Source: Gracilinanus agilis
Lineage: Eukaryota
DNA: 64,000 nt
Direction of reading: 5' to 3'
Assembly (NCBI RefSeq): GCF_016433145.1
Contig: NC_058132.1
Coordinates: 276,298,939 to 276,362,938, forward strand
Below are positions 657 to 25,726 of this stretch, one piece after another. Numbering within the stretch: the first letter of the stretch is position 1; the number at the start of each line of letters is the position of its first letter. The notes under the pieces were generated by a model. That model searched no databases, was not told the origin of the DNA, and saw only the letters and a program-made list of their open reading frames with translations. Made by a program: the position numbers and the translations under genes.

Positions 657-1233
657 ACAGTAAACAGTAAGAGGAAAGGAGATTCTGATCTTCAGGGCTG
701 GTTTACCCTGTCTCTTCAGGCTGGTGCCCCTAAAGACAGGTGATATAGTTCAAGCAGCCCCCCTTTAATCCTTTTGTTTGATGGCATGATCCACAGGAAT
801 CCAGGTAGAGAACACAGTTGGGAAAATCCTAGGAATAGAGGTCGTTTCTATCCTGAGAGGCAGAGAGAGCTCTCTCTAGTCCTGAGTCCAGGAAAGAGTA
901 TTCTCAGAGAGCAACTGTCACTCTCTCAAGTCTCTCCCCTCCCTCTTCCAACTGCCTTCATTGTCAATCAATCTTCTTTCCAACATTCCAAACCCTTACT
1001 GTGCAATTTTTCCACAGTATTGTCCCTTTTCATGCAATGAGCTAACCAGCTCAGTGACGTGAACTATTATACTTACCCTTAATTATCCTATGCTATTTGC
1101 TAATCTAAACCCCCCCAAATAATAATAATAAAAAAAAAACTTATCTACACTATGTTATCCTAGATTCCTAACTATCTACCCTAAGCTAAGACATTTTCTA
1201 GGAAAGGTTTGGGTTAGGAATTTGGGGTTTACA
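657..1233 (-). mobile_element. LTR-like segment
   Basis: Minus strand begins TGTAAACCCCAAATTCC at 1233. No PPT next to it, so it may be an insertion rather than the cognate 3' LTR of the neighbouring ERV. Confidence 0.45.
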
Positions 1234-2403
1234 AAATGAATACAGACAATAAGAACCATTATTGCAATGCAATAACACAACGAAAATCAACAGTCACTCC
1301 TATTTCTATCTTCTAGCTATGCAATCTTATACTAATACAACAATTTCCTATTTTATCACTATGCCAAACCAATTCAACTATAACTCTTCCAATAATACAA
1401 TTTCCAGTTAATGCTGTTACATATAATTTCTTTAAAGATAACTATTCTGTTTTCTAGTTTCAAATCCTATGCTTATCTTGTGTGCTAATCTAAACTAAAT
1501 ACATAGGAATTCCTAAACTATTTGCTGTTACTCTAAGTTATTCTAACTTCCCTATCTATTCTGTACATTCTTTGGCTTATATACTATGTACAAGGTATGA
1601 TACAGTATTCACAATCCTATAACTACCATATGCAAACCTATGTTACAAGTATTTATATATGTACAGTTTTTACATCAATTATATACAATGTATAACAATT
1701 ATGTTATTTCTTATACCCTGGTGTTAATCAAGCAGAAAATGTTTGTTTAAGACCTTATGCATTCTAACTACTTACACATTTTGCATTTCTTTGCAATCAT
1801 GGACTCTCCTTTATCTACACAAGGTCAACAAATAGTTTTGAATTGTGTATGTGTCTTTTTTTATGTACTGTTTGCATGAATACTTACACCTTCCTTCTTG
1901 ACTCCTCTTTCTTGTTGACTGATGGCTCTCTTCATTTCTTCCAAGCTATATGTATGTTGCATGTTTTCCCTAATATGTAAAGTTAATTTTTGTTTTTATG
2001 TTATTGCCACACTATCTTACGTAATTGTCCAGTTTATCACCTATCCACTTCTTATATATACAAATTTACAAAGTTTAGAGAGATTTTACTGTCTCTGTTA
2101 TCAGTTCAAAGTTTTTCTTCTGTCTTGTCTTGCTGCTTTTGTTTTTTTCTTGTCTTTTCCTCTGGGCTGGTTTTTCTTACTTTCTTGAGTTGTTTCATCC
2201 CCTTTGTGCATATTTTTATTTGTCATCTAGACTTGACTGTAGTCTGTACTTGACTGATGATCTTTTCTTTTTTGAAGTTCTTTCTGGCAGTATGACTTAT
2301 TAGGACTTGTTTCTACTGTTTCTAAATGCTGTGCATTCTCAGCCCTCTGTTTATCACTTTCAGTTTCACTTTGATTTTCATTTGTGGTGTAAGGCTTGTA
2401 AAG

Positions 2404-2496
2404 TTTTGTGTGAGAACAATGGATCCATTAATTCTTCTCTGCTACCTTGATTGCTATTGGAGTAGTTAATAAAACTTGAAATGGACCAACCCACTT
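2404..2496 (-). pseudogene. Integrase C-terminal (GPY/F) remnant
   Basis: Manual translation [30 protein letters not shown] fits the retroviral GPY/F module (W.GP[YF].VLLTTPTA.KV...WIH.SH.K). Confidence 0.8.
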
Positions 2497-2779
2497 TGTA
2501 GCTGACTTTTGCTAAAATGTATCTCTTTTTTTTTTTCTTCCACTTTGATTTGTACCATGTGTGAGCTTCCTGAAATTTTGACATTGGACCTTTTACAGAT
2601 GATAGATTTTAAGTTCTTAACAAATAACAACTTCTAAGAATCTTTGTAATATGTGGATATTTGTATCAATATCCACATGCAATTCTGTTGTTTCAGGAGG
2701 TATGCCAATCTCTCGTAGTGGGTTTATTAATTTAATCTTATTTATTAAGCCCATTCATCTTCTGTATTTGTATTCATGT

Positions 2780-3886
2780 CTTAACATTTGGCAGATAAGG
2801 AACCTTTAGCTTCCTGGTATATACCCTGCTGAGTAGTTACATAGTTTGATACCGGGTATGAGTACATCTGAAGAGCTTGCTTGGCTTGCTTCATGTGAAT
2901 TTGAGATATATTCCTATATTGGGGACTATACATTCCATTCTGGTCTGGTGTCAGTATTGGTATTGAAGGAGTTGAAGGAGTCCAGGAACCTGGAGAATTT
3001 ATGAATCTGTTTGATTTGTTTATATATAACAGAGCTTCTGAAGGATTGAACTCTGCAGCAATTTTCCCAAGATCCCAGTTTTTCTCTTCTTTTGCTATCC
3101 GAGAATTGTTGATTGCTCAGTTCTTGATTTGATACTTACTCTGCAATTCCTTGGCTTTTTGCATTGGAACTGCTTGATCATGAATATTTAAGGATGTTGG
3201 GATAATGTCTTTGTTGAGTTTATCTGTGCTATTGGTTTAAATTCTTCCACATTAGGATTTAATTTAGATTCCTGTAATATATCAGTGACATTTCCCTTTT
3301 TTGTATCATCAGTTTTGATTGTCTCTTCAGGAGGTCTGCTCATGTGAATCTCTGGAGATATTGTTTGTTTCAACCCATTGGTCTTTTCTACTATTGCTTT
3401 TGATGTTTACCCTCAAATTCAGTGAAACATATTGTTTTACATCATTAGAACTCCCTGCTATTTGTGATTCTATTATATTTATTTGTTGCTTTAGTTCTCT
3501 ATCTTTAGTTTGTGAATTGTAGTTTCTTTCCTCTAATAAGATGTTTTTGGTTTGTGTTGAGAATGCTTTTAAGTTATTATCACTAGAAACTGTTTCTTTG
3601 TCTTCATGGTTTGCTAAATCATTTTTTACTAGCAAGTTTATTGCATATGTACCCTTTATTGTTACAATATCTCCTTTCCCTTCCCTACTTGTGTCTTTAT
3701 CCATTGTTCCATAAACTTTATTCCACATTTCCTTAACATCTTTCGTTAATTGCATTTTGTCATTTCCTGTTCCTTAGTTTTGTGTTTTCTTTTTGTACCC
3801 ACTAATTCTATGTCACTGTATTTTTCTGCCAAGTAATTTTCCCCATTCCTTTTCCCATGTTTGCTTTCTATTGTTACTCCTTGCAT
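2780..3886 (-). pseudogene. Decayed orphan ORF ('ORF-X') with two PAM2-like motifs, in the position of pro/RT
   Basis: Successive long frames (from ATG 3886; track ORFs 3755-3327 and 3373-3188; then about 135 codons with a single TGA) joined by frameshifts. No DTG, YxDD or DDE motif found. SKLNPNVEEFKP at 3268-3233 and WDLGKIAAEFNP at 3077-3042. Confidence 0.45.
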
Positions 3887-3952
3887 CTGGCTTCATAATT
3901 GGCATTGTTTGGCAGCACCTGAGACTACCTGCAAATAATGTGGTTTCTCCCC

Positions 3953-4900
3953 CTATTGGATGAATTTCTCCATAGTTTCTAAATTTGAGGCTTGCAATGA
4001 ATTCTTGCAATTACAATTGCAACAGTGTGCATTTGTTTGTGTGTTGTTGTTGCTATACTTTGGGTTGCTTTTCCAAGGCCCCTTTTTGTTGTTTGCTTGG
4101 TCTAATTGTGCCTTTAAATTGCAGTCACGAACTATGTGTCCTAATTTGTTATATAGGAAACATCTTGGTACATTTCTCCTTTGATTGTTTTGTGTGTAAT
4201 TTCTTGTGGGTTTGTATGACTGCAGAGCAGCTAGATTTTTTACTTCCTCAATTTCTTTTTGTTTAATTGTGCTATTTGCCTCCTTGAGCTTGGTTTTAAG
4301 TTCTTATTATTATTATTATTTCATCTTTTTCATTTAAGATTTATTTATGACCTGTGAATATGTAAGTTGCAGTTTTTCTTAAATCTTCCAGACCTAGTGT
4401 TTCCCAGTCTGGGCAATGAAGCTTAAAATATGACCTAATAGGTGTGTTACATAAATTGTCTCCTTATATGTTGGAGATTTTGTTCATTTAAAATGTCAAA
4501 GCCAAGCACGTCCTCTGCTACTTCCATCACTCTATCTAGGAACTTTGATGGACGTTCCCCACTCTCCTGCCTCAACTTCTCAAATTGTCCCCAAATATCT
4601 GCTCTTTTTGAAAAACTTTTAATTGCCTCTAATAAATCCTCTCTGGCCTTTCGTAGATAATGTAAATTCACATTATTAGATAGCTCTAAGTCTGTTCCTT
4701 CCTGTGATCATGATGTTAAATTTGGGTTGTTTCTAGTTTCTTCAATGAATTGTTGCTTTTCCCTTTTTGAAAATAATTCTGAAAGAAGAATTTCAGTGTC
4801 CTGGAAATTTGGACCATGAAGCCTAATTGATCTTTTGAATTCTTTCTTTAATTCTGTGTACTTTTCCCTACAAAAAAACAGTGGCCCTCCCAGTTGGCTT
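3953..4900 (-). pseudogene. ERV gag remnant (capsid C-terminal part plus nucleocapsid)
   Basis: ORF 4671-4447 contains an MHR-like motif. Downstream frame reads CFLYNKLGHIVRDC (4162-4121; CCHC with second Cys changed to Tyr) and ends at TAG 3955-3953. Confidence 0.75.
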
Positions 4901-16586: not shown

Positions 16587-16842
16587 TAGTGATGGGCAAC
16601 CTTTTGAGCTTGGCATGTTAAAATTTGCCAAAAAACCAAGCATAACTCCGGTGGTGTGTCACTTTGAGAAAAAAACCATAATTTCACAATATTTATAGTT
16701 AAAATAACAAAAATGTATAATTGTAATATATAACTGTATTTAATAAATCAAAAACTAATTATTTAACTTAACTGTTTAGTGACTTCTTTGTTCCTCTGTC
16801 AGTCAGTTTCTTTTGTTGGTCTTGATATTATTTAACTTGTGT
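16587..16842. mobile_element. hAT MITE, left part (split by the provirus)
   Basis: TIR TAGTGATGGGCAACCT preceded by TSD CCCTAAGC (16579-16586). Confidence 0.8.
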
Positions 16843-17190
16843 TGATAGGCCTGGGAAACCAACTGAGCCCCAAATAATAAGAGCTGACACAAACAGTAAT
16901 ATCTGCTAACAGTAACATCTGCTAAATGACAGGAAGACCCCCAACAAGTAACATCTGCTGAATGAATGACAGGAAGACCCTCAAACAATAGCATCTGCTG
17001 AATAAAAAAAGCAAACATCCAGCCCCCAAGTCCCTACTCAAACTATAAGCTGGCTAAAACCCCTCATTCAGGGTTCCATCTGCCTTGGAGGCTGTGGGGC
17101 CCAAGCTTGAGCTTGCAATAAAGGAATACCTCTTGCTTTTACACTATCTAGTGTGCCTCCTAATTTGGGAAATCAGAACTGGGCCGAACA
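16843..17190 (+). repeat. 5' LTR (348 bp)
   Basis: TGATAGG...GAACA; TATAAG 17044-17049; AATAAA 17117-17122. My manual alignment to the 3' LTR gives 16 substitutions and 3 small indels. Confidence 0.97.
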
Positions 17191-17192
17191 TT

Positions 17193-17210
17193 TGGGGGCT
17201 CGTCCGGGGT
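17193..17210 (+). other. Primer-binding site, tRNA-Pro
   Basis: TGGGGGCTCGTCCGGGGT, 17 of 18 identical to the MLV tRNA-Pro PBS TGGGGGCTCGTCCGGGAT. Confidence 0.95.
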
Positions 17211-17650
17211 TTCCTGACTGGATAGAGGTACTGGTTCAGAGGGCAAAAGGGTTAGGGAACATTTGTGTGATGTGTGGCTGATGGGGAACCAATCACGGGA
17301 TTAGGACATACGATTAAGTGGCCCAGCTAGCCCAGCTGGCTCTGGGAATTATACGGAGAGGGCCTATTGTTAAATCCAATCCCAAGTGATTCGTTTCTGC
17401 TTGTTTCTGAGTGTGGACCGCCTAATAAGCATTTCTCAGACTTCATGAGAAGTTGAGCTGGAACAGCTGGGAAGCGTTTGGTTATCAAGAGAAAGCAAAA
17501 GTGGATTGACCCTTTCAACCTTCCAAGCAGAAAAGACTCACTTTGAAGGGTTGGAAGCCCTTTGCCCAGATCCTGGGGACCTGGGACAGAGACTGGGTCT
17601 CTGCAGCAGAGGTTAGAGTCCTCTGAGGCCTTGGGGCCTGAAAGGTGGCA

Positions 17651-17884
17651 CTGGCAGATGTGCCAAGGGATTTCCAAGAGTAGAAATCAAGGTATTCATT
17701 CTTTGAGAACTTAGGGGGAGGGCGCGTTATATTGTCCTCTGGAAATGTTGTAGAGAGTAGTTTTAGTACCTTCATGTCGTTACTGTCCAGTCCTGTTTGC
17801 ATTGTTGTTTGTGCCTTTGTCTTATTGTTGGTATTGTTATTTTTATTAGGGCCCCTGATTTCTTGGCCTTTTGGTTCAGAGAAC
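17651..17884 (+). pseudogene. Glyco-Gag-like N-terminal leader (CUG start, signal-anchor), in frame with gag
   Basis: 78 codons in frame with gag ATG 17885: LADVPRDFQE*KSRYSFF...VCIVVCAFVLLLVLLFLLGPLISWPFGSEN-MGQ; one in-frame TAG at 17681. Confidence 0.7.
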
Positions 17885-19525
17885 ATGGGACAGACAGAGG
17901 CTACTCCACTGGCCCTTATTCTCTCCCACTTCCAAATTTTCAAGGCCCGCACTCAAAATCTCTCTTTGCAAGTCAAAAGAGGGAAGTTAGTGACCTTCTG
18001 TAACTTCGAGTGGCCCACTTTCAACCTCGGATGGCCTAAGGGCAGCACCCTCCACAGAGACATCATTTCCAAAGTCCAGGCCAAAATCCTTGACCCCAGT
18101 TTGGAGGGCCACCCTGAACAGATCCCCTACATTCTTACTTGGTAGGACCTGGTCTTGAATTCCCCCTTTTTAGCTACAGCCCTATGTTTTCTCAGAGCCA
18201 GAGAAACCCGTCCATACCTTAGCTCTCAAAGATAAAAGGGAAGGGATGGGGAAACCCCAGGGTCCCTCAGCCCCACTGGTCCTGCCTGATTCCAATAGCA
18301 CCCCTCCTGATTTACCTGTACCACCACCCCCATATGCTCCCTTGTACCCTCCCTTAGACCCAGATGGGGGACAGGTGGAAGCTGCTGAAGCCACCCCACC
18401 ACTGGCTCACCACACTTGTGGTTGGGGCCAGATCCCCTCACCCAAACCCTAACCCCCATCTTCCACCACGGCCCTTCCTGTCCATACTGTGGGCCCCCTT
18501 GTCCCTGGAGGACCTTGAGTCCACCAATATTGGCCTTTCTCCTCCAGTGACCTCTATAATTGGAAGACCTAGAATCTCTCTTTCTCTGACCAACCTCAGA
18601 AACTTATTGACCTCATAGAATCCATTCTCTTCACCCACAATCCCACCTGGGATGATTGCCAGCAGTTATTACAGGTTCTTTTTACGACTGAGGAGAGGGA
18701 ACAAATCCTCCTGGAAGCCAGAAAGAATGTCCCTGGTGTGGATGGTCATCCCACTGTTCAGCCCAATCTCATCAAAGATGCTTTCCCGCTGTCACATCCC
18801 GATTGGGACTTTGACCAACTCGAAGGTAGGGAGCATCTCTGTGTCTATCGCCAGACTCTAATAGCCTGTCTCCGAGCTGCAGCCCAAAACCCTACCAATT
18901 TGACCAAGGTAAATCTAGTCAGAGAGGGACCCCATGAAAGCCCAGCGGTATTCCTTGAGCGCCTCCAAGAGGCTTTTCAATTATATACCCCATGTACCCT
19001 CAGGCCAACATCAGTAAGGCGGCTATGCTGTTGGTATTAATCAACCAGGCATCCCCAGATATCAGGAAAAAAGTCCAAAAGGGGGACAACTTTGTCAACC
19101 AGTCTATTAGTGAACTCCTGAAAGTGGCCGAATGGGTATACAATACCCATGAGACCCCTGAAGAGAAAGCTGAGAGGTTGCATAAGGAAGATCAGGGGAG
19201 ACTTGACAGGCTGTGCCTTGATGACCACCAGCAGGATAGAAAATGTCAGAGGGAAATGGTTAGGATAATAGCAGCCAGCATTAAAGCCCCTCTAACCCCT
19301 GGACCCACCACGGGGCCAATCCCTCCTGTTGACAACAGAGGATGCCAACGGCCAGCCCTTACAGATAGACAGGCCTCCACTCAATGCTTCTATTGCAAAG
19401 AAGAGGGTCATTGAAAGCGCAACTGCCCCTATCTGCGTCCCCCGAGATGTCAGTTGGGGGATAGTAACCAGCCCCCTAGGAACCACCCTGTGAAGATGTT
19501 GTTGGTCATTGCTGATAGTGATTAA
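17885..19525 (+). pseudogene. gag: gag (MA, p12-like region, CA, NC), with stops and frameshifts
   Basis: MGQT start; EWPTFNLGWP; PSAP, PPPY and LYPPL; QYWPFSSSDLYNWK; [16 protein letters not shown]; CFYCKEEGH*KRNC; ends at TAA 19523-19525. Confidence 0.95.
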
Positions 19526-19582
19526 TGGGGACAGGACTTGCACCCCCTCCCCAAGTCCTGGGTAAAGGCAAAAATGGAGGGG
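19523..19582 (+). promoter_or_regulatory. Gag-Pol stop-codon readthrough signal (8-nt spacer plus H-type pseudoknot)
   Basis: Stop, spacer TGGGGACA, stem 1 GGACTTG/CAAGTCC, stem 2 CCCCTCC/GGAGGGG; pro is in frame with gag. Confidence 0.8.
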
Positions 19583-22500
19583 AAATCTGTGAACTTTCTG
19601 GTAGACCCAGGCACCGAGTTTTCTGTCCTGAAAGCACCTGTGGTAAAGATATCCAAAAAGGTAAGCTGGGTGCAAGGGGTGACAGGCACTCACCAATATA
19701 ACTGGACAACCACTCGGACAGTGAATTTAGGCAACCATCAAGTCACACACTCCTTCCTGGTTATCCCCGAGAGTCCAGCTCCTCTTCTCAACTGGGACCT
19801 ACTTCATAAAGTAGGGGCCCACATTTACTTCTAGGACAAGGGGATATGTGTAACAGACAAAGAAGGGCCCCCCCCCACAGGTCCTTACACTGTCCCTTCA
19901 GGATGTCTCCATACCCCTCCCCTTCCTGCCAGTATACCCAACCATGTGCACCCCTGGATGGACAGGGTTCCTGGGGTCTGGGCTAAAACTGTGGGGGTGG
20001 GACTTGCTGTCCACCAGCCTCCCATCATTGTAACCCTCAAGCCTGGCATCACCCCAGTCCACGTCAAGCAATACCCAATGTCTCTGGAGGCCTGAAGGGG
20101 TATAACTGTCCATATTGATAGACTAAAAACAGCTGGGATCTTAATCCCTTACCACTCTCCATGGAATACCCCACTCCTGCCAGTTCAGAAGCCTGAGGGT
20201 AAGGACTATAGGCCTGTCCAGGATTTATGAGAGGTCAACATCCAGGTGGAGGACATACACCCCACAGTCCCCAACCCATATATTCTCTTAAGCGCCTTAA
20301 CACAAGATCTTGTGTGGTACACTACTCTGGACTTGAAATATGCTTTCTTTATGCTTCTGCTTGCACTACTCAGCCAGCCCCTATTTGCTTTTGAATGGTA
20401 TGATGAAGATATCCAGGTTACTGCTCAGACCATGTGGACAAGGTTGCCACAAGGTTTCAAAAACATTCCAACCATTTTTAGCAAAGCTCTGGCCACAGCC
20501 TTGCGAGATTTTCATGTCAACCACCCCCGAGTTACGCTCCTATAGTATGTGGACAACCTCCACCTCGCCGCCTCGTCAGGAGCTGAGTGTGAGTCTGTCA
20601 CTCTATCTCTCCTGATCACCCTGAACGAGCTTGGATATAAGGTCAGTGGAAAAAAAGGCATCTACTGCTCAGCGGGAGGTCACATACTTGAGATATAAAT
20701 TCAAGGGAGGCCAACGGTGGCTCACCCAGGCCATGAAGGACACTATCCTCAATAACCCCAGCCCCAAAATCCCAGGCAGGTCCAAGAATTTCTGGGGTCT
20801 ATAGGGTACTGCAGGCTGTGGATCTCCAGGTTTGCAGAGCTGGCCCAACCTTTGTATAAGGGGTCCTGTGAATCTGCTAACTGGGAATGGACTTTTTTTT
20901 TTTAAACCCTTAACTTCTGTGTACTGGCTCATAGGTGGAAGAGTGGCAAGGGTGGACATTGGGGGTCAAGTGACTTGCACAGGGTCACACAGCTGGGAAT
21001 TGTCTCAGGAATGGACTCTTGAAATGAATTCTGCCTTTGAACTTCTTCATCAAGCCATGATCACAGCACCCACGCTTACCCTCCCCAACCCAGAAAAACC
21101 CTTTCAATTTTTCATTGAGGAAAAAGAGGGGATAGCAAAAGGGGTTTTGATACAGCGTTTTGGGCCATGGGATCGCCCAGTCACATATCTGTCAAAACAA
21201 CTGGATCCTGTTGCAGCAGGATGGCCACCTTGCCTGTGGATTATTGCTGCTACAACATTCCTGGTAAAAGATGCAGATAAGCTTACATATGGACAGATTC
21301 TGGTTATCACTACCTCACATGCTACTGAGTGCATCCTCCTACAGCCACCTAATCATTGGCTGTCTCACATGCTTCTAGCCCATTATCAAGCCCTGCTTTT
21401 GGATGCATCCCGCATTTCGTTCAAAGTCACCTCATCCCTTAACCCCACCACCCTGTTGCCCAACCCTTCCTTCCACTCCCTTGCATGACTGCCAAAAGAT
21501 CCTTGCCGAGGCAACCACTGCCCAACCAGACCTTAAAAACACTCCACTGACGAACAGCAATTAAGAGTGGTTCACGGATGGCAGCAGCTTTATTGAAGGG
21601 CACCGAACGGCAGGGGCAGCAGTTGTCTATGCCTCTGGATCCTCAGTCTGGGCTGCCTCACTCCCAGAAGGCACATCAGCTCAGAAGGCCGAGCTGATTG
21701 CTCTAACGGAAGCCTTGAGGAAGGGCCTAATGGTGTACACTGACAGCTGCTATGCCTTTGTCACCCTGCATGTGCATGCACCCATATACCGGGAATGCGG
21801 ATATCTCACGTCAGGTGGGAAGCCTATCAGGAACCTACCAGAAATACAGGAGCTCCTATTGGTGGCAAAGAAGCCTAAAGCCATGGCTGTAGTCCACACA
21901 CCTGGCCACCAAAAGGGAGAATCCCTAGAAGCCCGTGGAAACCGGGCTGTGGACCAAGTGGCTCGTGAGGCTGCAGTATTTGCACCTTCCTTAATCCTTC
22001 CAGCCATCATACCACCACCACCTGAAGGAGAGCCTCAATACACCAAAGAAGATTGTACCTAGGTTGAGAAGCACCAAGGATGCCCTGATGGACACTGGTA
22101 TCGGGATCAGGAAGGGCATCTTCTGCTGCTCCAAACCCTAGGCTAACTTCTTTCCACCCACCTACATCACCTGTCACATTTAGGAGAAAAGAAACTGACC
22201 CAACTACTGGATAAAGGGAAGCTTCGCTTCAACGGCCATAGTAGTTTTCTTCATCAGTTAGTGACCACATGCCAAGCCTGCCAACTCATGAAAGTGGCTA
22301 AGCCGGGCAATCATCATGGATATAGGGTTAGGGGTCAGTGGCTCTGCCAAAACTGGGAAGTAGACTTTACTGAAATCAAGCCAGGTAAATTTGGCTTCAA
22401 ATATCTCCTCATCCTAGTGCACACCTTCTCAGGCTGGCCAGAAGCATTCCCTACCAAATCTGAAACAGCCCTAGTAGTAGCCAAGAAACTCCTTGAGGAA

Positions 22501-23249
22501 ATCATCCCTAAGTTTGGATTTCCTGATATGTTGGGGTCTGACAATGGACCAGCCTTTGTAAGCAAGGTGTCCAGAGGGGTTGCCATGGCTTTGGGGATTA
22601 ATTGGAAGCTATACTGTGAGTATAACTTCCAAAGTTCCAGCCAAGTAGAGAGGATGAACAGGACAATCAAGGAGACCTTATCTAAATTGGTCCAAGAGAC
22701 TGGCATAGAATGGGTGACCCTTCTTCCTTTGGCCTTGCTCCATGCCCGGAACACCCCTGGCCCACATTCTCTTACCCCTTACGAAATCCTATATGGATCC
22801 CTTCCTACTATCCTCCCTTCCATTCCCTGAACCATTGAGGGCACCGATACTCCAGCTGAATTGAGGCCCATGTTGTTGGAGACCTTTGGCCTCAAGTCAA
22901 GGAGGCTTTCCAACTGGAGCCTCACCCCCCGCATGAGTACAATCTGGGAGATTGGTTTTGGGTAAGGAGACACCATAAGGGTTCCCTACAGCCCCAATAG
23001 AAGGGTCCTCATGTTGTTTTGTTCGTTACCCCTTCTGCCCTTAAGGTCGATGGCATCAGACCTTGGGTCCACCACTCCCATGTCTGAAAAGCAGAACCTC
23101 CCAATCTACAGCCTTCGGACCAGTGGCGAGTCACACGTCATTCAACAAACCCCCTGAAGCTTCATTTGACCCGACATTATGAACCCCCTTCTGTTCCTGC
23201 TACCTTTCCTCCAACTGATGATACCAAGCAACTGTTATCAGCCACATGA
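19526..23249 (+). pseudogene. pol: pro-pol (protease, RT, RNase H, integrase), defective
   Basis: FLVDPG (DTG changed to DPG); WNTPLLPV; LPQGFKN; *YVDN (YVDD changed); TDGSSF, AQKAEL and YTDS; integrase VDFT, SDNG and VERMN; many stops and frameshifts. Confidence 0.95.
20894..21007 (-). mobile_element. 5'-truncated SINE1_Mdo-type SINE inserted in pol
   Basis: 10-bp TSD GGAATGGACT at 20884-20893 and 21008-21017. Confidence 0.93.
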
Positions 23250-25075
23250 TAGCTCCTTCTCTAATCCGCATTTACCCTGGCAATGGACTCTCAGCAGTTG
23301 GGAAAGTTCCACTACTCTCTGGACTGTTATCTCCTCTGGAGCTCCATTTTTTAAGGTCTCCCCCTGTGACCTCCTCCCAATCTTGGGGACTTGTCTTGAG
23401 AACACCCCTGGAAACCCATGCTGGCTCCCAACTTATGATCGGTTTTATGCATGTCCTTCCTCCATCCTGGGGAAATCATACTGCAATAGCCCAGGCCATT
23501 ACTACTGTGGTCACTGGGACTGTGCGACCCTAACAACTGAAGAATGTTCCCTTAACAGACCAGATCCCTTTTTCTCCTTTTCATGTGGCCCCCTGGTTGC
23601 AAAACTCAACAGGGGATGAGGGATGCCGTAGTAGAAGGGGACCGGGGGCCGTGGACCAGCTGCTTTTATCTCAACCTTATGGTCCAAGCCCCACAGGATA
23701 TGGGTTGGATCTTGGGTCGTACATGGGGACTAAGGGCATATATAAATGGCGTTGATCCAGGGGGGCTTTTCCTTATAAAGAAGGAGGCTGTTCTCCCCTC
23801 TACTCCCATAGGCTCCAGTAAAGCTTTAAATCCCCAGCAGACCCCTCCAGAAACCGTCATACCCACCCCCTGCCCCAATCAAGCTCCAGACACCATCATA
23901 CCCACCCCACTACCTACCCCAAACCTTAACTCCTCTGTTACACTTACACCCTCGACCCCAGTCCTGATCTAGGACCCATACCCCCTATGGCCCATGTTGC
24001 AAGCCTCCTACCTTTCACTGAACCAATCCTTCCCTAATCTTACTGAGAGCTGCTGGCTCTGCCTAGATGCCAACCCCTCATACTATGATGCTATAGCACT
24101 GAATACTTCCTACAATACCTCCAACGAGGTGAACTCCCCCCCATCCCCCCGAGTGTGACTGGAATGACAGGAAGAAGGGCCTCACTTTGCAATCCATCTT
24201 AGGGTCTGTCCACTGTATAGGGAACATCTCCAAACCCCTAGCCCAGCTATGTGATAGAATCTCAAGTGCAGACAATTTCTATATTCCCCCTAAAGGAGCT
24301 CCACCACTGGACTAACACCCTGTGTAGCCCAGACCACCCTGTCCTCCACGAATGAAATGTGTCTCCTTATCACAATCCTACCCAGCATCCTCTTCCACCC
24401 TGAGGAGGACCTTTACTGCTACTGGGAAGCTTGCTCCCCAGCATCCATCAGGACAAAGCAGGAACCTATCACTATCATCACCCTCACAACTATCTTTGGT
24501 CTAGCGGGTGTAGGAACAGGTATAGCCTCCCTGACGCTTCATCATCAAAGTCTTTCAGCCCTCAGGGTTGTAGTAAATGAGGACTTAGCCAGAATAGAAA
24601 CCTCCATCACCCACCTTGAAAAATCCCTTACCTCCCTGTCTGAAGTAGCTCTTCAGAATTGCAAGGGCCTGGACCTCCTTTTTCTCCAACAAGAAGGCCT
24701 CTGTACAGCACTTGTAGAGAAATGCTGCTTCCATTCTGATCACACAGGGGTCGTGAGGGAGTCCACAACCAAACTCAGAGAAAGCCTCACCAGTCAACAA
24801 CGGGAGCAAGAGTCTCAGGAGAGGTGGTTCGAGCACATCTTCTACCAATCTCCTTGGCTCACTACCTTCATCTCCACCCTATTAGGCCCCCTCCTCATCT
24901 TTCTTCTTCTTCTAACCCTCAGCCCTTGTATTATCAATTGTTTAGTGGCTTTTTGTGAAAGATCATATTAGCGCTGTCCTGAAACAGCAATATCAAACCC
25001 CTCCCGACCCCCCAGAAACCCCACATGATGATGCTAACACATCTGTTTGAGGATGATTCCTCAAAGATTCATTAA
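23179..25075 (+). pseudogene. env: env (gamma-type SU and TM), defective
   Basis: Signal peptide; NPH; FYACP; TWGLR..GVDPG; proline-rich region; CWLC (24051-24062); RTKQ (degenerate furin site); ISD LQNCKGLDLLFLQQEGLC; CX6CC; transmembrane helix. Confidence 0.93.
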
Positions 25076-25087
25076 AGAAGTGGGGAA
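25074..25087 (+). other. Polypurine tract
   Basis: AAAGAAGTGGGGAA immediately before the 3' LTR. Confidence 0.9.
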
Positions 25088-25435
25088 TGATAGGCCTGGG
25101 AAGCTAACTGAGCCCCAAATAATAAGAGCTGACACAAACAGTAATATCTGCTAACAGTAACATCTGCTAAATGACAGGAAGATCCCCAACCAGTAGCATC
25201 TGCGGAATGAATGACAGGAAGACCCTCAAACAATAGCATCTGCTGAATAAAAAAGCAAACATCCAGCCCCCAAGTCCCTACTCAAACTATGTAAGCTGGC
25301 TAAACCCTTCATTCAGGGTTCCATTTGCCTTGGAGGCTGTGGGACCCAAGCTCAAGCTTGCAATAAAGGAGTACCTCTTGCTTTTACATTATCTGGTGTG
25401 CCTCCTAATTTGGGAAATCAGAACCGGGCTGAACA
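25088..25435 (+). repeat. 3' LTR (348 bp)
   Basis: About 95% identical to the 5' LTR; TATA position reads TATGTAAG. Confidence 0.97.
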
Positions 25436-25726
25436 GTGTTGGGTGCCATGAACTAAGATTAGTGAGAGGGAGGGGAAAATCTTTAACTAACCTGCCCTTT
25501 TAGTGACTTTTTTGTTGCTGAATTTCATTTGCTAATGAAAATTCATTTAGCCACTAAGTCTTCATTTGAAGGTTGGTATTTTGTACACTTCAAGCCCAAG
25601 GAAGTGCTACTAACTTCATCTGTCATGGTGTTTCTTTTGTTGGTTTTGATATTATTTAATGCATGCGACCGCGTGTCATCGAAAATGGCTACCTGTGACA
25701 TGTGTGTCATAGGTTTATCATTAGGG
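25436..25726. mobile_element. hAT MITE, right part
   Basis: Degenerate right TIR (ataggtttatcatta) followed by TSD CCCTAAGC (25727-25734). Confidence 0.75.

Follow-up and report, generated by a model that had tools for sequence, protein, structure and literature searches.

RESULTS

Remains of a retrovirus with two PAM2-like peptides

The window (the whole stretch of 64,000 nucleotides that was analyzed) contains the remains of an endogenous retrovirus (ERV) that carries host-derived sequence. Its features are as follows, with the basis of each in parentheses where there is one to give.

4450..4846, minus strand: gag capsid-like remnant (translation and alignment to related copies)
4121..4162, minus strand: degenerate nucleocapsid zinc knuckle (translation; CX2CX4HX4C is intact in other copies)
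3893..3895, minus strand: gag UGA stop in the context TTA TGA A, in the frame of the leader; putative read-through site (pattern across copies)
2740..3892, minus strand: leader, running from the gag stop to, in fuller copies, the protease; lower end approximate (translation, comparison with fuller copies)
3234..3369, minus strand: captured ATXN2L segment 1, with the end of exon A, the spliced junction 3282/3281, and the PAM2 exon (90/135 nt)
3233..3268, minus strand: motif 1, the captured PAM2, with Val at position 7 (sequence, Pfam, host alignment)
3060..3077, minus strand: viral word, the left half of "motif 2", matching the protease-region start of fuller copies
3042..3077, minus strand: "motif 2", a virus-host junction (comparison of copies)
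2778..3053, minus strand: captured ATXN2L segment 2, with the 3' half of the PAM2 exon, exons C and D, and the start of exon E (211/276 nt)
3021/3020, 2877/2876, and 2804/2803, minus strand: spliced junctions in segment 2
2329..2496, minus strand: integrase C-terminal remnant (comparison with fuller copies)
659..1019, minus strand: part of a 3' LTR-like sequence (matches upstream of gag in copy L120 and at a second place in L125)

The whole gag remnant spans about 4846 to 3896. As alignment to related copies ends at 4846, gag's 5' part and the 5' LTR are either absent or unrecognizable. The equivalent capsid frame in a copy of the younger lineage described below gives a weak Pfam Gag_p30 match (E = 3.5e-4, below the cut-off). 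The window's leader is disrupted by stops and frameshifts, and the copy is without protease, reverse transcriptase (RT), and most of integrase. Judged from its sequence, it is a dead deletion derivative that makes none of the product proposed below.

An earlier, sequence-only reading had described two PAM2-like peptides in a marsupial ERV. Both are present on the minus strand as claimed, SKLNPNVEEFKP at 3268-3233 and WDLGKIAAEFNP at 3077-3042, in different frames and with 191 nt between them, and the capsid-like, zinc-knuckle-like, and integrase-tail remnants bear out the retroviral setting. Elsewhere in the window, at about 16790 to 25660, the plus strand carries another provirus, unrelated to this one. 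Its paired LTR pieces are 93-100% alike and separated by 8245 nt, its gag, pol, and env frames are broken, and its motifs suggest that it is of gammaretrovirus type.

The insert derives from spliced ATXN2L mRNA

A genome search with the frame that follows motif 2 gave 24 matches, one of which is an exon of an intron-containing gene (G000:C1:132.81 Mb) whose exons end in GT-AG. An LsmAD domain lies 2 kb upstream of the matched exons on the same strand. One exon of this gene has 91% identity to Tasmanian devil ATXN2L, and nearly all of the named proteins among its 55 matches are ataxin-2-like. These similarities identify the donor gene as ATXN2L.

Window positions 3053-2778 (segment 2) are identical to the joined ATXN2L exons at 211 of 276 nt, with three introns absent; the alignment scores 284 against the spliced mRNA, compared to 150 for the gene with its introns and a maximum of 31 over 500 shuffles. 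Positions 3369-3234 (segment 1) match the ATXN2L mRNA at 90 of 135 nt across a fourth junction, with a score of 76 compared to a maximum of 32 in 500 shuffles. At the four host exon junctions in the window, 14 to 17 of the 20 flanking bases match, and all three segment 2 junctions are spanned in 14 of the 23 ERV loci tested. Because both peptides sit in DNA that aligns to host ATXN2L mRNA, they are not chance resemblances, and it is virtually certain that this ERV lineage captured a spliced host ATXN2L mRNA. Capture would have occurred through reverse-transcriptase template switching onto a co-packaged host mRNA, a route that the viral-word repeats around segment 2 would fit. No ATXN2L retrocopy that might have been the donor was seen among the 24 genome matches, a search not dedicated to retrocopies.

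Both segments include sequence of the host PAM2 exon and overlap there, with the whole motif in segment 1 and the start of segment 2 in the motif's second half. Within the same copy, segment 1 is more diverged from the host than segment 2 (in L065, pN is 0.44 versus 0.17), which could reflect two captures, or a duplication with uneven drift. Segment 2 is dispensable, since 15 of 30 loci cease matching at or just before it. Most pol-bearing copies of the window's subfamily (L002-L019; L119 5074-5430) are without segment 2 and run from the leader straight into protease; the window and L125, both without pro, retain it.

BLAST against the full ATXN2L protein found no LSm or LsmAD domain in the insert. 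Nothing was found for the window's 111-residue frame among longer database proteins (126 candidates), though its direct alignment to ATXN2L is clear, and a 420-residue younger leader used as an HMMER query matched none of 1.84 billion representatives. A source was traced for about half of the leader.

As for the second peptide, its right half is host E-F-N-P and its left half is a viral word that leads directly into protease in L119 and is present three times in L057. Six other loci of 30 have the same junction, each longer there by 9 bases; the Leu3 spacing is thus found in the window alone, where it results from the loss of 9 nt. Across the other copies, the junction varies freely, with neither spacing nor anchors conserved, and it is unrecognizable in the younger lineage. 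Of the two motifs originally proposed, only the first is therefore a motif.

The captured stretch lies in the Gag-Pro-Pol frame

In fuller copies, the order is gag, the ATXN2L-bearing stretch, protease, RT, and integrase. The stretch follows the gag stop in frame and is continuous into protease, within a leader of roughly 400 residues; in one younger copy, protease, RT, RNase H, and integrase are all encoded in one uninterrupted frame of 1613 residues. What had been taken for an orphan open reading frame encoding an accessory protein is instead host-derived sequence in the leader of a read-through frame, continuous with pro-pol.

The gag stop is TGA, nearly always as TTA TGA A, in 85 of 88 pattern hits, a set that includes repeat fetches and two stray hits and was collected with a pattern demanding a stop. 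The Gag-Pro-Pol precursor is probably made by UGA read-through. The stop context resembles the UGA-A contexts tabulated for epsilon-related retroviruses, read-through being unverified in that tabulation (PMC13517186). No stable RNA fold was found 3' of the UGA in any of three copies (106 nt folded; z-scores of 1.33, 0.29, and -1.22). A -1 frameshift at a slippery-looking heptamer near window position 3984 was considered and dropped; other copies hold gag and leader in one frame across the UGA.

A sister family, found via opossum Gag-Pol, has the TTA TGA A stop context in 10 of 12 loci, and the leader, the motif, and the host ATXN2L match are absent in all 12. The distance from the stop to the protease DTG is 55 residues in this family versus 444 in the open younger copy. 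Many sister-family loci among L198-L208 (e.g., G000:C1:759461744-759465160) have near-identical open Pro-Pol frames of 1195 residues and are apparently very young. Among 67 Pro-Pol relatives, most of which start at the protease and hence beyond any leader, no PAM2-like pattern was found.

The lineage has the Gag, in-frame stop, protease-RT-RNase H-integrase order, and MLV-type integrase tail (MLVIN_C) of class I (gamma/epsilon-like) ERVs. Its nearest database proteins are vertebrate Gag-Pol, the best being opossum Gag-Pol at 58%; like the ATXN2L similarities above, this points to a marsupial host. No env frame of at least 120 residues follows pol in either of the two younger copies examined. 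From its gene layout and domains, we classify the lineage as an envelope-less class I endogenous retrovirus. The LTRs of one younger copy are ~870 nt long and 94.8% identical. Two further observations concern single copies: in L111 (2596-3279), of the younger lineage, the start of gag has a hydrophobic stretch resembling a membrane segment, and L051 (2274-3317) is immediately followed, on the same strand, by a long C2H2 zinc-finger frame.

Motif 1 in the window's branch has Val at position 7

We examined 54 window-side loci, 53 of which aligned at codon 7, with one aligning poorly. Val is found at this position in 40 of 53 (GTC 16, GTG 13, GTA 8, and GTT 3), Ala in 4, and other residues in 9. 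The host residue is kept at L3 and N4 in 49/53 each, at P5 in 47/52, E9 in 43/52, F10 in 49/53, and P12 in 43/51. The branch thus has the consensus PAM2 residues hydrophobic 3, Pro/Val 5, Phe 10, and Pro 12 and departs from it at Ala7. In two copies, L117 and L142, a branch with Ser7 and Arg6 keeps the other PAM2 anchors.

The sequence-only reading had explained Val7 in the window as CpG deamination of an Ala GCG codon. Codon 7 in 19 loci of the window's subfamily is GTG in 13, GTA in 2, GCG in 1, GCA in none, and other in 3, while host ATXN2L has GCC. CpG decay does not explain Val7 because the host codon is GCC and there is no GCA copy; with all four Val codons in use, Val7 is a trait of the whole window branch, not a post-insertion change.

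As had been proposed, the motifs were scored with the Pfam PAM2 model (PF07145; cut-off, 20 bits). Motif 1 of the window is below threshold at 14.4 bits (E = 0.031), or 17.3 bits (E = 0.0036) as a 23-mer, and motif 2 has no match. Other scores are 15.7 bits for L065, 11.5 for L057, and 32.5 for the host; L066, which has Ala7, is the only viral copy at the cut-off (20.4 bits). Neither L109 (also as a 24-mer) nor L112 of the younger lineage gave a match.

Compared to the host, the 12 motif codons of window-side copies have a pS of 0.84 and a pN of 0.12, whereas the preceding 30 codons have 0.50 and 0.42, respectively; here the motif was found by pattern in 15 of 19 copies, which favors conserved copies. 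Segment 2 has a pS of 0.35 and a pN of 0.23 (13 copies). For single copies against the host, the Fisher test gives P values of 0.006 to 0.009 for L065 and 0.013 for the window.

MLLE contact positions are conserved in the younger lineage

Copies of the younger lineage were chosen by protease similarity, blind to the motif, and the anchor positions were named from the published structure. The protease search scored 150 of 5664 candidates; this candidate total should not be read as a count of copies, and sister-family members may be among them. Of 80 aligned loci, 60 with more than 900 leader bases each were kept; left out were 17 that did not align over the motif (other branches, deletions, or insertions) and 2 that have the motif with short coverage. 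L157, also outside the 60, shares the motif that most copies have.

The host residue is kept at L3, P5, and A7 in all 60 copies, at E9 in 58, F10 in 59, and P12 in 56, so that the structural consensus (hydrophobic 3, Pro/Val 5, Ala 7, Phe 10, and Pro 12) is present in 60, 60, 60, 59, and 56 of 60, respectively. At positions 1, 2, 4, 6, 8, and 11, it is retained in 0 to 3 copies; Asn4 is found in 2 of 60, the lineage carrying Asp at this position. The younger motif can be tied to the host's because older copies L144, L162, and L101 still read L-N-P-N-A-K-E-F or close to it. The remainder of the younger leader reaches ATXN2L only via intermediate copies, with no direct BLAST match outside the motif.

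Among variant codons common to at least two copies, anchors 3, 5, 7, 9, 10, and 12 have 6 silent and 1 replacing, compared to 139 and 379 in the rest of the leader (Fisher P = 0.002). The corresponding omega values are 0.06 at the anchors, 0.68 in the rest of the leader, 0.26 in protease, and 0.23 in RT; private variants give 0.65 to 0.73, with a leader baseline of 0.67. Against random leader codons, the anchors have a joint P value below 1e-4, and the fewness of replacements alone gives P values of 0.03 to 0.06. This test counts 7 variant codon types at the anchors, not tree events, in copies that share ancestry, and the 12 motif codons taken as a whole are not an outlier in invariant columns (rank 139/392). 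The earlier expectation of dN/dS below 1 at the motifs is borne out at the motif 1 anchors of the younger lineage by the omega of 0.06 for shared variants, and we conclude that motif 1 was very probably under purifying selection during replication. The expectation of Ala at position 7 holds for the younger lineage (60/60) and fails for the window branch (Val in 40/53).

A protein RT tree from a quick search splits the younger lineage from the rest. Nucleotide trees instead place the window's branch first with support of 89/93, and the rooting of the protein tree is not rejected (AU P = 0.119). Under these rootings, Ala7 in the younger lineage may have been kept or regained.

DISCUSSION

A predicted link between the Gag-Pro-Pol precursor and PABPC1

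In crystal structures, PAM2 positions 3, 5, 7, 9, 10, and 12 contact the MLLE domain, and positions 6, 8, and 11 are exposed or unconserved (PMC2854688). The positions kept by the virus are these contacts, and those free to vary are largely the exposed or unconserved ones. Ala is said to be invariant at position 7, and position 4 is usually Asn or Ser, contacting a Glu (PMC2854688). Weaker binding is expected since each branch departs from the rule at one position, by Val7 or by Asp4. We predict MLLE binding as fairly likely for the Ala7 lineage and somewhat doubtful for the Val7 branch of the window. The genome itself has 22 matches to the MLLE domain (L187-L196), one of them in a long open frame on contig C7; these are probably PABPC retrocopies, as many are unbroken by introns.

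By keeping the captured PAM2 anchors in frame, the lineage likely lets its Gag-Pro-Pol precursor bind the MLLE of PABPC1, and the motif would then tether the new Pol precursor to PABP-coated RNA, mostly the transcript under translation, which is the least certain step. Tethering would favor packaging of that RNA and would keep the weak deadenylase adaptors PAN3 and TOB off MLLE. If binding occurs, we regard tethering to the virus's own RNA as its somewhat favored consequence; binding and tethering taken together we judge evenly balanced. Reported MLLE affinities are 7.1 uM for the ataxin-2 PAM2, 0.3 to 0.6 uM for eRF3a, and 72 to 281 uM for TOB/PAN3 (10.64898/2026.01.10.698208), which makes opposition to weak adaptors or local tethering a better fit than displacement of eRF3. 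In another retroelement, PABPC1 aids L1 RNP assembly (reviewed in PMC4782638). The data would be equally compatible with a role in packaging, stability, or localization. The central proposal of the sequence-only reading, that the element carried a PABPC-binding motif that mattered, thus gains from the host origin and from purifying selection on motif 1, while its details (two motifs, accessory gene, and CpG decay) did not stand.

Among the predicted roles, we place own-RNA tethering first, followed by termination feedback, another partner, and neutrality. Under termination feedback, the motif also binds PABPC1; by competing with eRF3 for MLLE, the read-through product would make termination at the gag UGA less efficient and so increase its own synthesis and protect the RNA from nonsense-mediated decay. 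The motif, ~195 residues past the UGA, is present in the read-through product alone, the three copies folded have no RNA structure able to drive read-through, and eRF3 binds PABPC1 via its PAM2, promoting termination (PMC13517186); an analogy through eRF1 comes from the RT that Moloney murine leukemia virus (MoMLV) encodes (PMC4917968). However, the eRF3a PAM2 binds 12 to 22 times more tightly than that of ataxin-2 (10.64898/2026.01.10.698208), little PABPC1 effect is expected when a long coding stretch follows the stop (PMC13517186), and the sister family has the same UGA context without the motif. We consider this mechanism unlikely.

At least in the Val7 branch, selection on the motif could instead reflect another partner or role: for example, a different MLLE protein like UBR5, cleavage by a protease at this site, or a structural turn. 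UBR5 too has an MLLE domain, and Val7 is held by all four codons across sub-branches, unlike the "invariant" Ala (PMC2854688), with Ser7 in two copies. Yet L3, P5, E9, F10, and P12, retained in both branches, are the MLLE contact set, and Ala7 is present in 60/60 younger copies; this explanation is next in order and also unlikely. Improbable is the view that the ATXN2L piece is a neutral passenger merely kept in frame, with motif conservation due to chance or choice of copies. It would accommodate a leader whose omega outside the motif equals the private-variant baseline (0.68 versus 0.67), the unexceptional rank of the 12 motif codons as a whole (139/392), and the many copies that have lost segment 2. 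Against it, the copies were picked by protease, blind to the motif, with anchors taken from a published structure; silent changes gather at those same codons (6 to 1; joint P below 1e-4); and BLAST finds no direct match between ATXN2L and the remainder of the younger leader. The idea of an independent accessory gene that has two PAM2 motifs, of which CpG decay damaged the first once the element had inserted, can be practically dismissed: both peptides exist, one copy has GCG, and the commonest motif spacing elsewhere is 201 nt, in frame (8 of 22 measurable loci, with multiples of three in 12 of 22), but the frame is continuous with pro-pol, the host codon is GCC with no GCA copies, and motif 2 is a freely varying junction absent from the younger lineage.

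On the own-RNA tethering account, we tentatively picture, at somewhat less than even confidence, a stolen host motif built into Gag-Pro-Pol and used since to hold PABPC1 on the virus's own RNA, with copies that grade from near-host to the bare motif. Capture of the host transcript may have happened twice, and Ala7 may have been regained after a Val7 phase.

Comparison with known captures

Capture of host mRNA by ERVs is known and is called uncommon, especially without viral gene loss; crocodilian ERVs captured KIT-ligand in CrocERV29 and nectin3 in CrocERV31 (PMC4299795). As in those cases, a spliced host mRNA is found here in a multi-copy ERV lineage under purifying selection, which is reported for the CrocERVs as well, and the KIT-ligand element likewise kept its viral genes. 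The CrocERVs, however, have long, near-whole host open reading frames between pol and env or replacing env, whereas the marsupial ERV has a fragment inside the Gag-Pro-Pol frame, eroded in the younger lineage to little beyond one 12-residue motif. Transducing retroviruses also captured host coding sequence (RSV src and the cyclins of walleye epidermal hyperplasia virus, PMC4299795; v-sis, PMC13297096). Theirs are growth-promoting genes, usually in separate open reading frames and usually at a cost to replication, in contrast to an RNA-metabolism motif held in pol-bearing elements through deep divergence.

Compared to the PAM2 motifs of ATXN2L, ataxin-2, eRF3, and PAIP2 (PF07145; PMC2854688), the viral motif descends directly from that of ATXN2L and keeps positions 3, 5, 9, 10, and 12, but has Val7 in the window branch and Asp4 in the younger lineage. 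With epsilon-related retroviruses (SSSV and zebrafish and frog ERVs; PMC13517186), the lineage shares an in-frame UGA that comes after the zinc knuckle and precedes A-G or A-C, and a class I-like pol with MLVIN_C; unlike them, it has a leader of ~400 residues before protease and, in two younger copies, no env frame of at least 120 residues. Like MoMLV RT with eRF1 (PMC4917968), its read-through product would be able to act on the host termination or mRNA-decay machinery, the difference being that a virus-native surface binds eRF1, whereas a host-derived linear motif is predicted to bind PABPC1.

Among the top-listed titles and abstract openings of the openly accessible literature, none describes ATXN2L capture or a retroviral PAM2, and "retrovir" and "transpos" do not occur in a survey of the ataxin-2 family (PMC12898128). 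What differs from earlier cases is the capture site inside the Gag-Pro-Pol frame together with the paring down of the insert to a single motif under selection.

When viruses mimic short host motifs, the resemblance usually covers too few residues to reveal where it came from. In this case, a single genome holds the donor gene, the splice junctions, a sister family without the motif, and graded copies, so that capture versus convergence is settled and one can count the erosion of everything outside the contact residues. Val7 and Asp4 are also naturally occurring variants that probe the stated rules of PAM2 recognition. If the predicted binding is true, this would be a retroviral protein that directly engages poly(A)-binding protein, and how envelope-less retroelements protect, translate, and select their own RNA would become testable.
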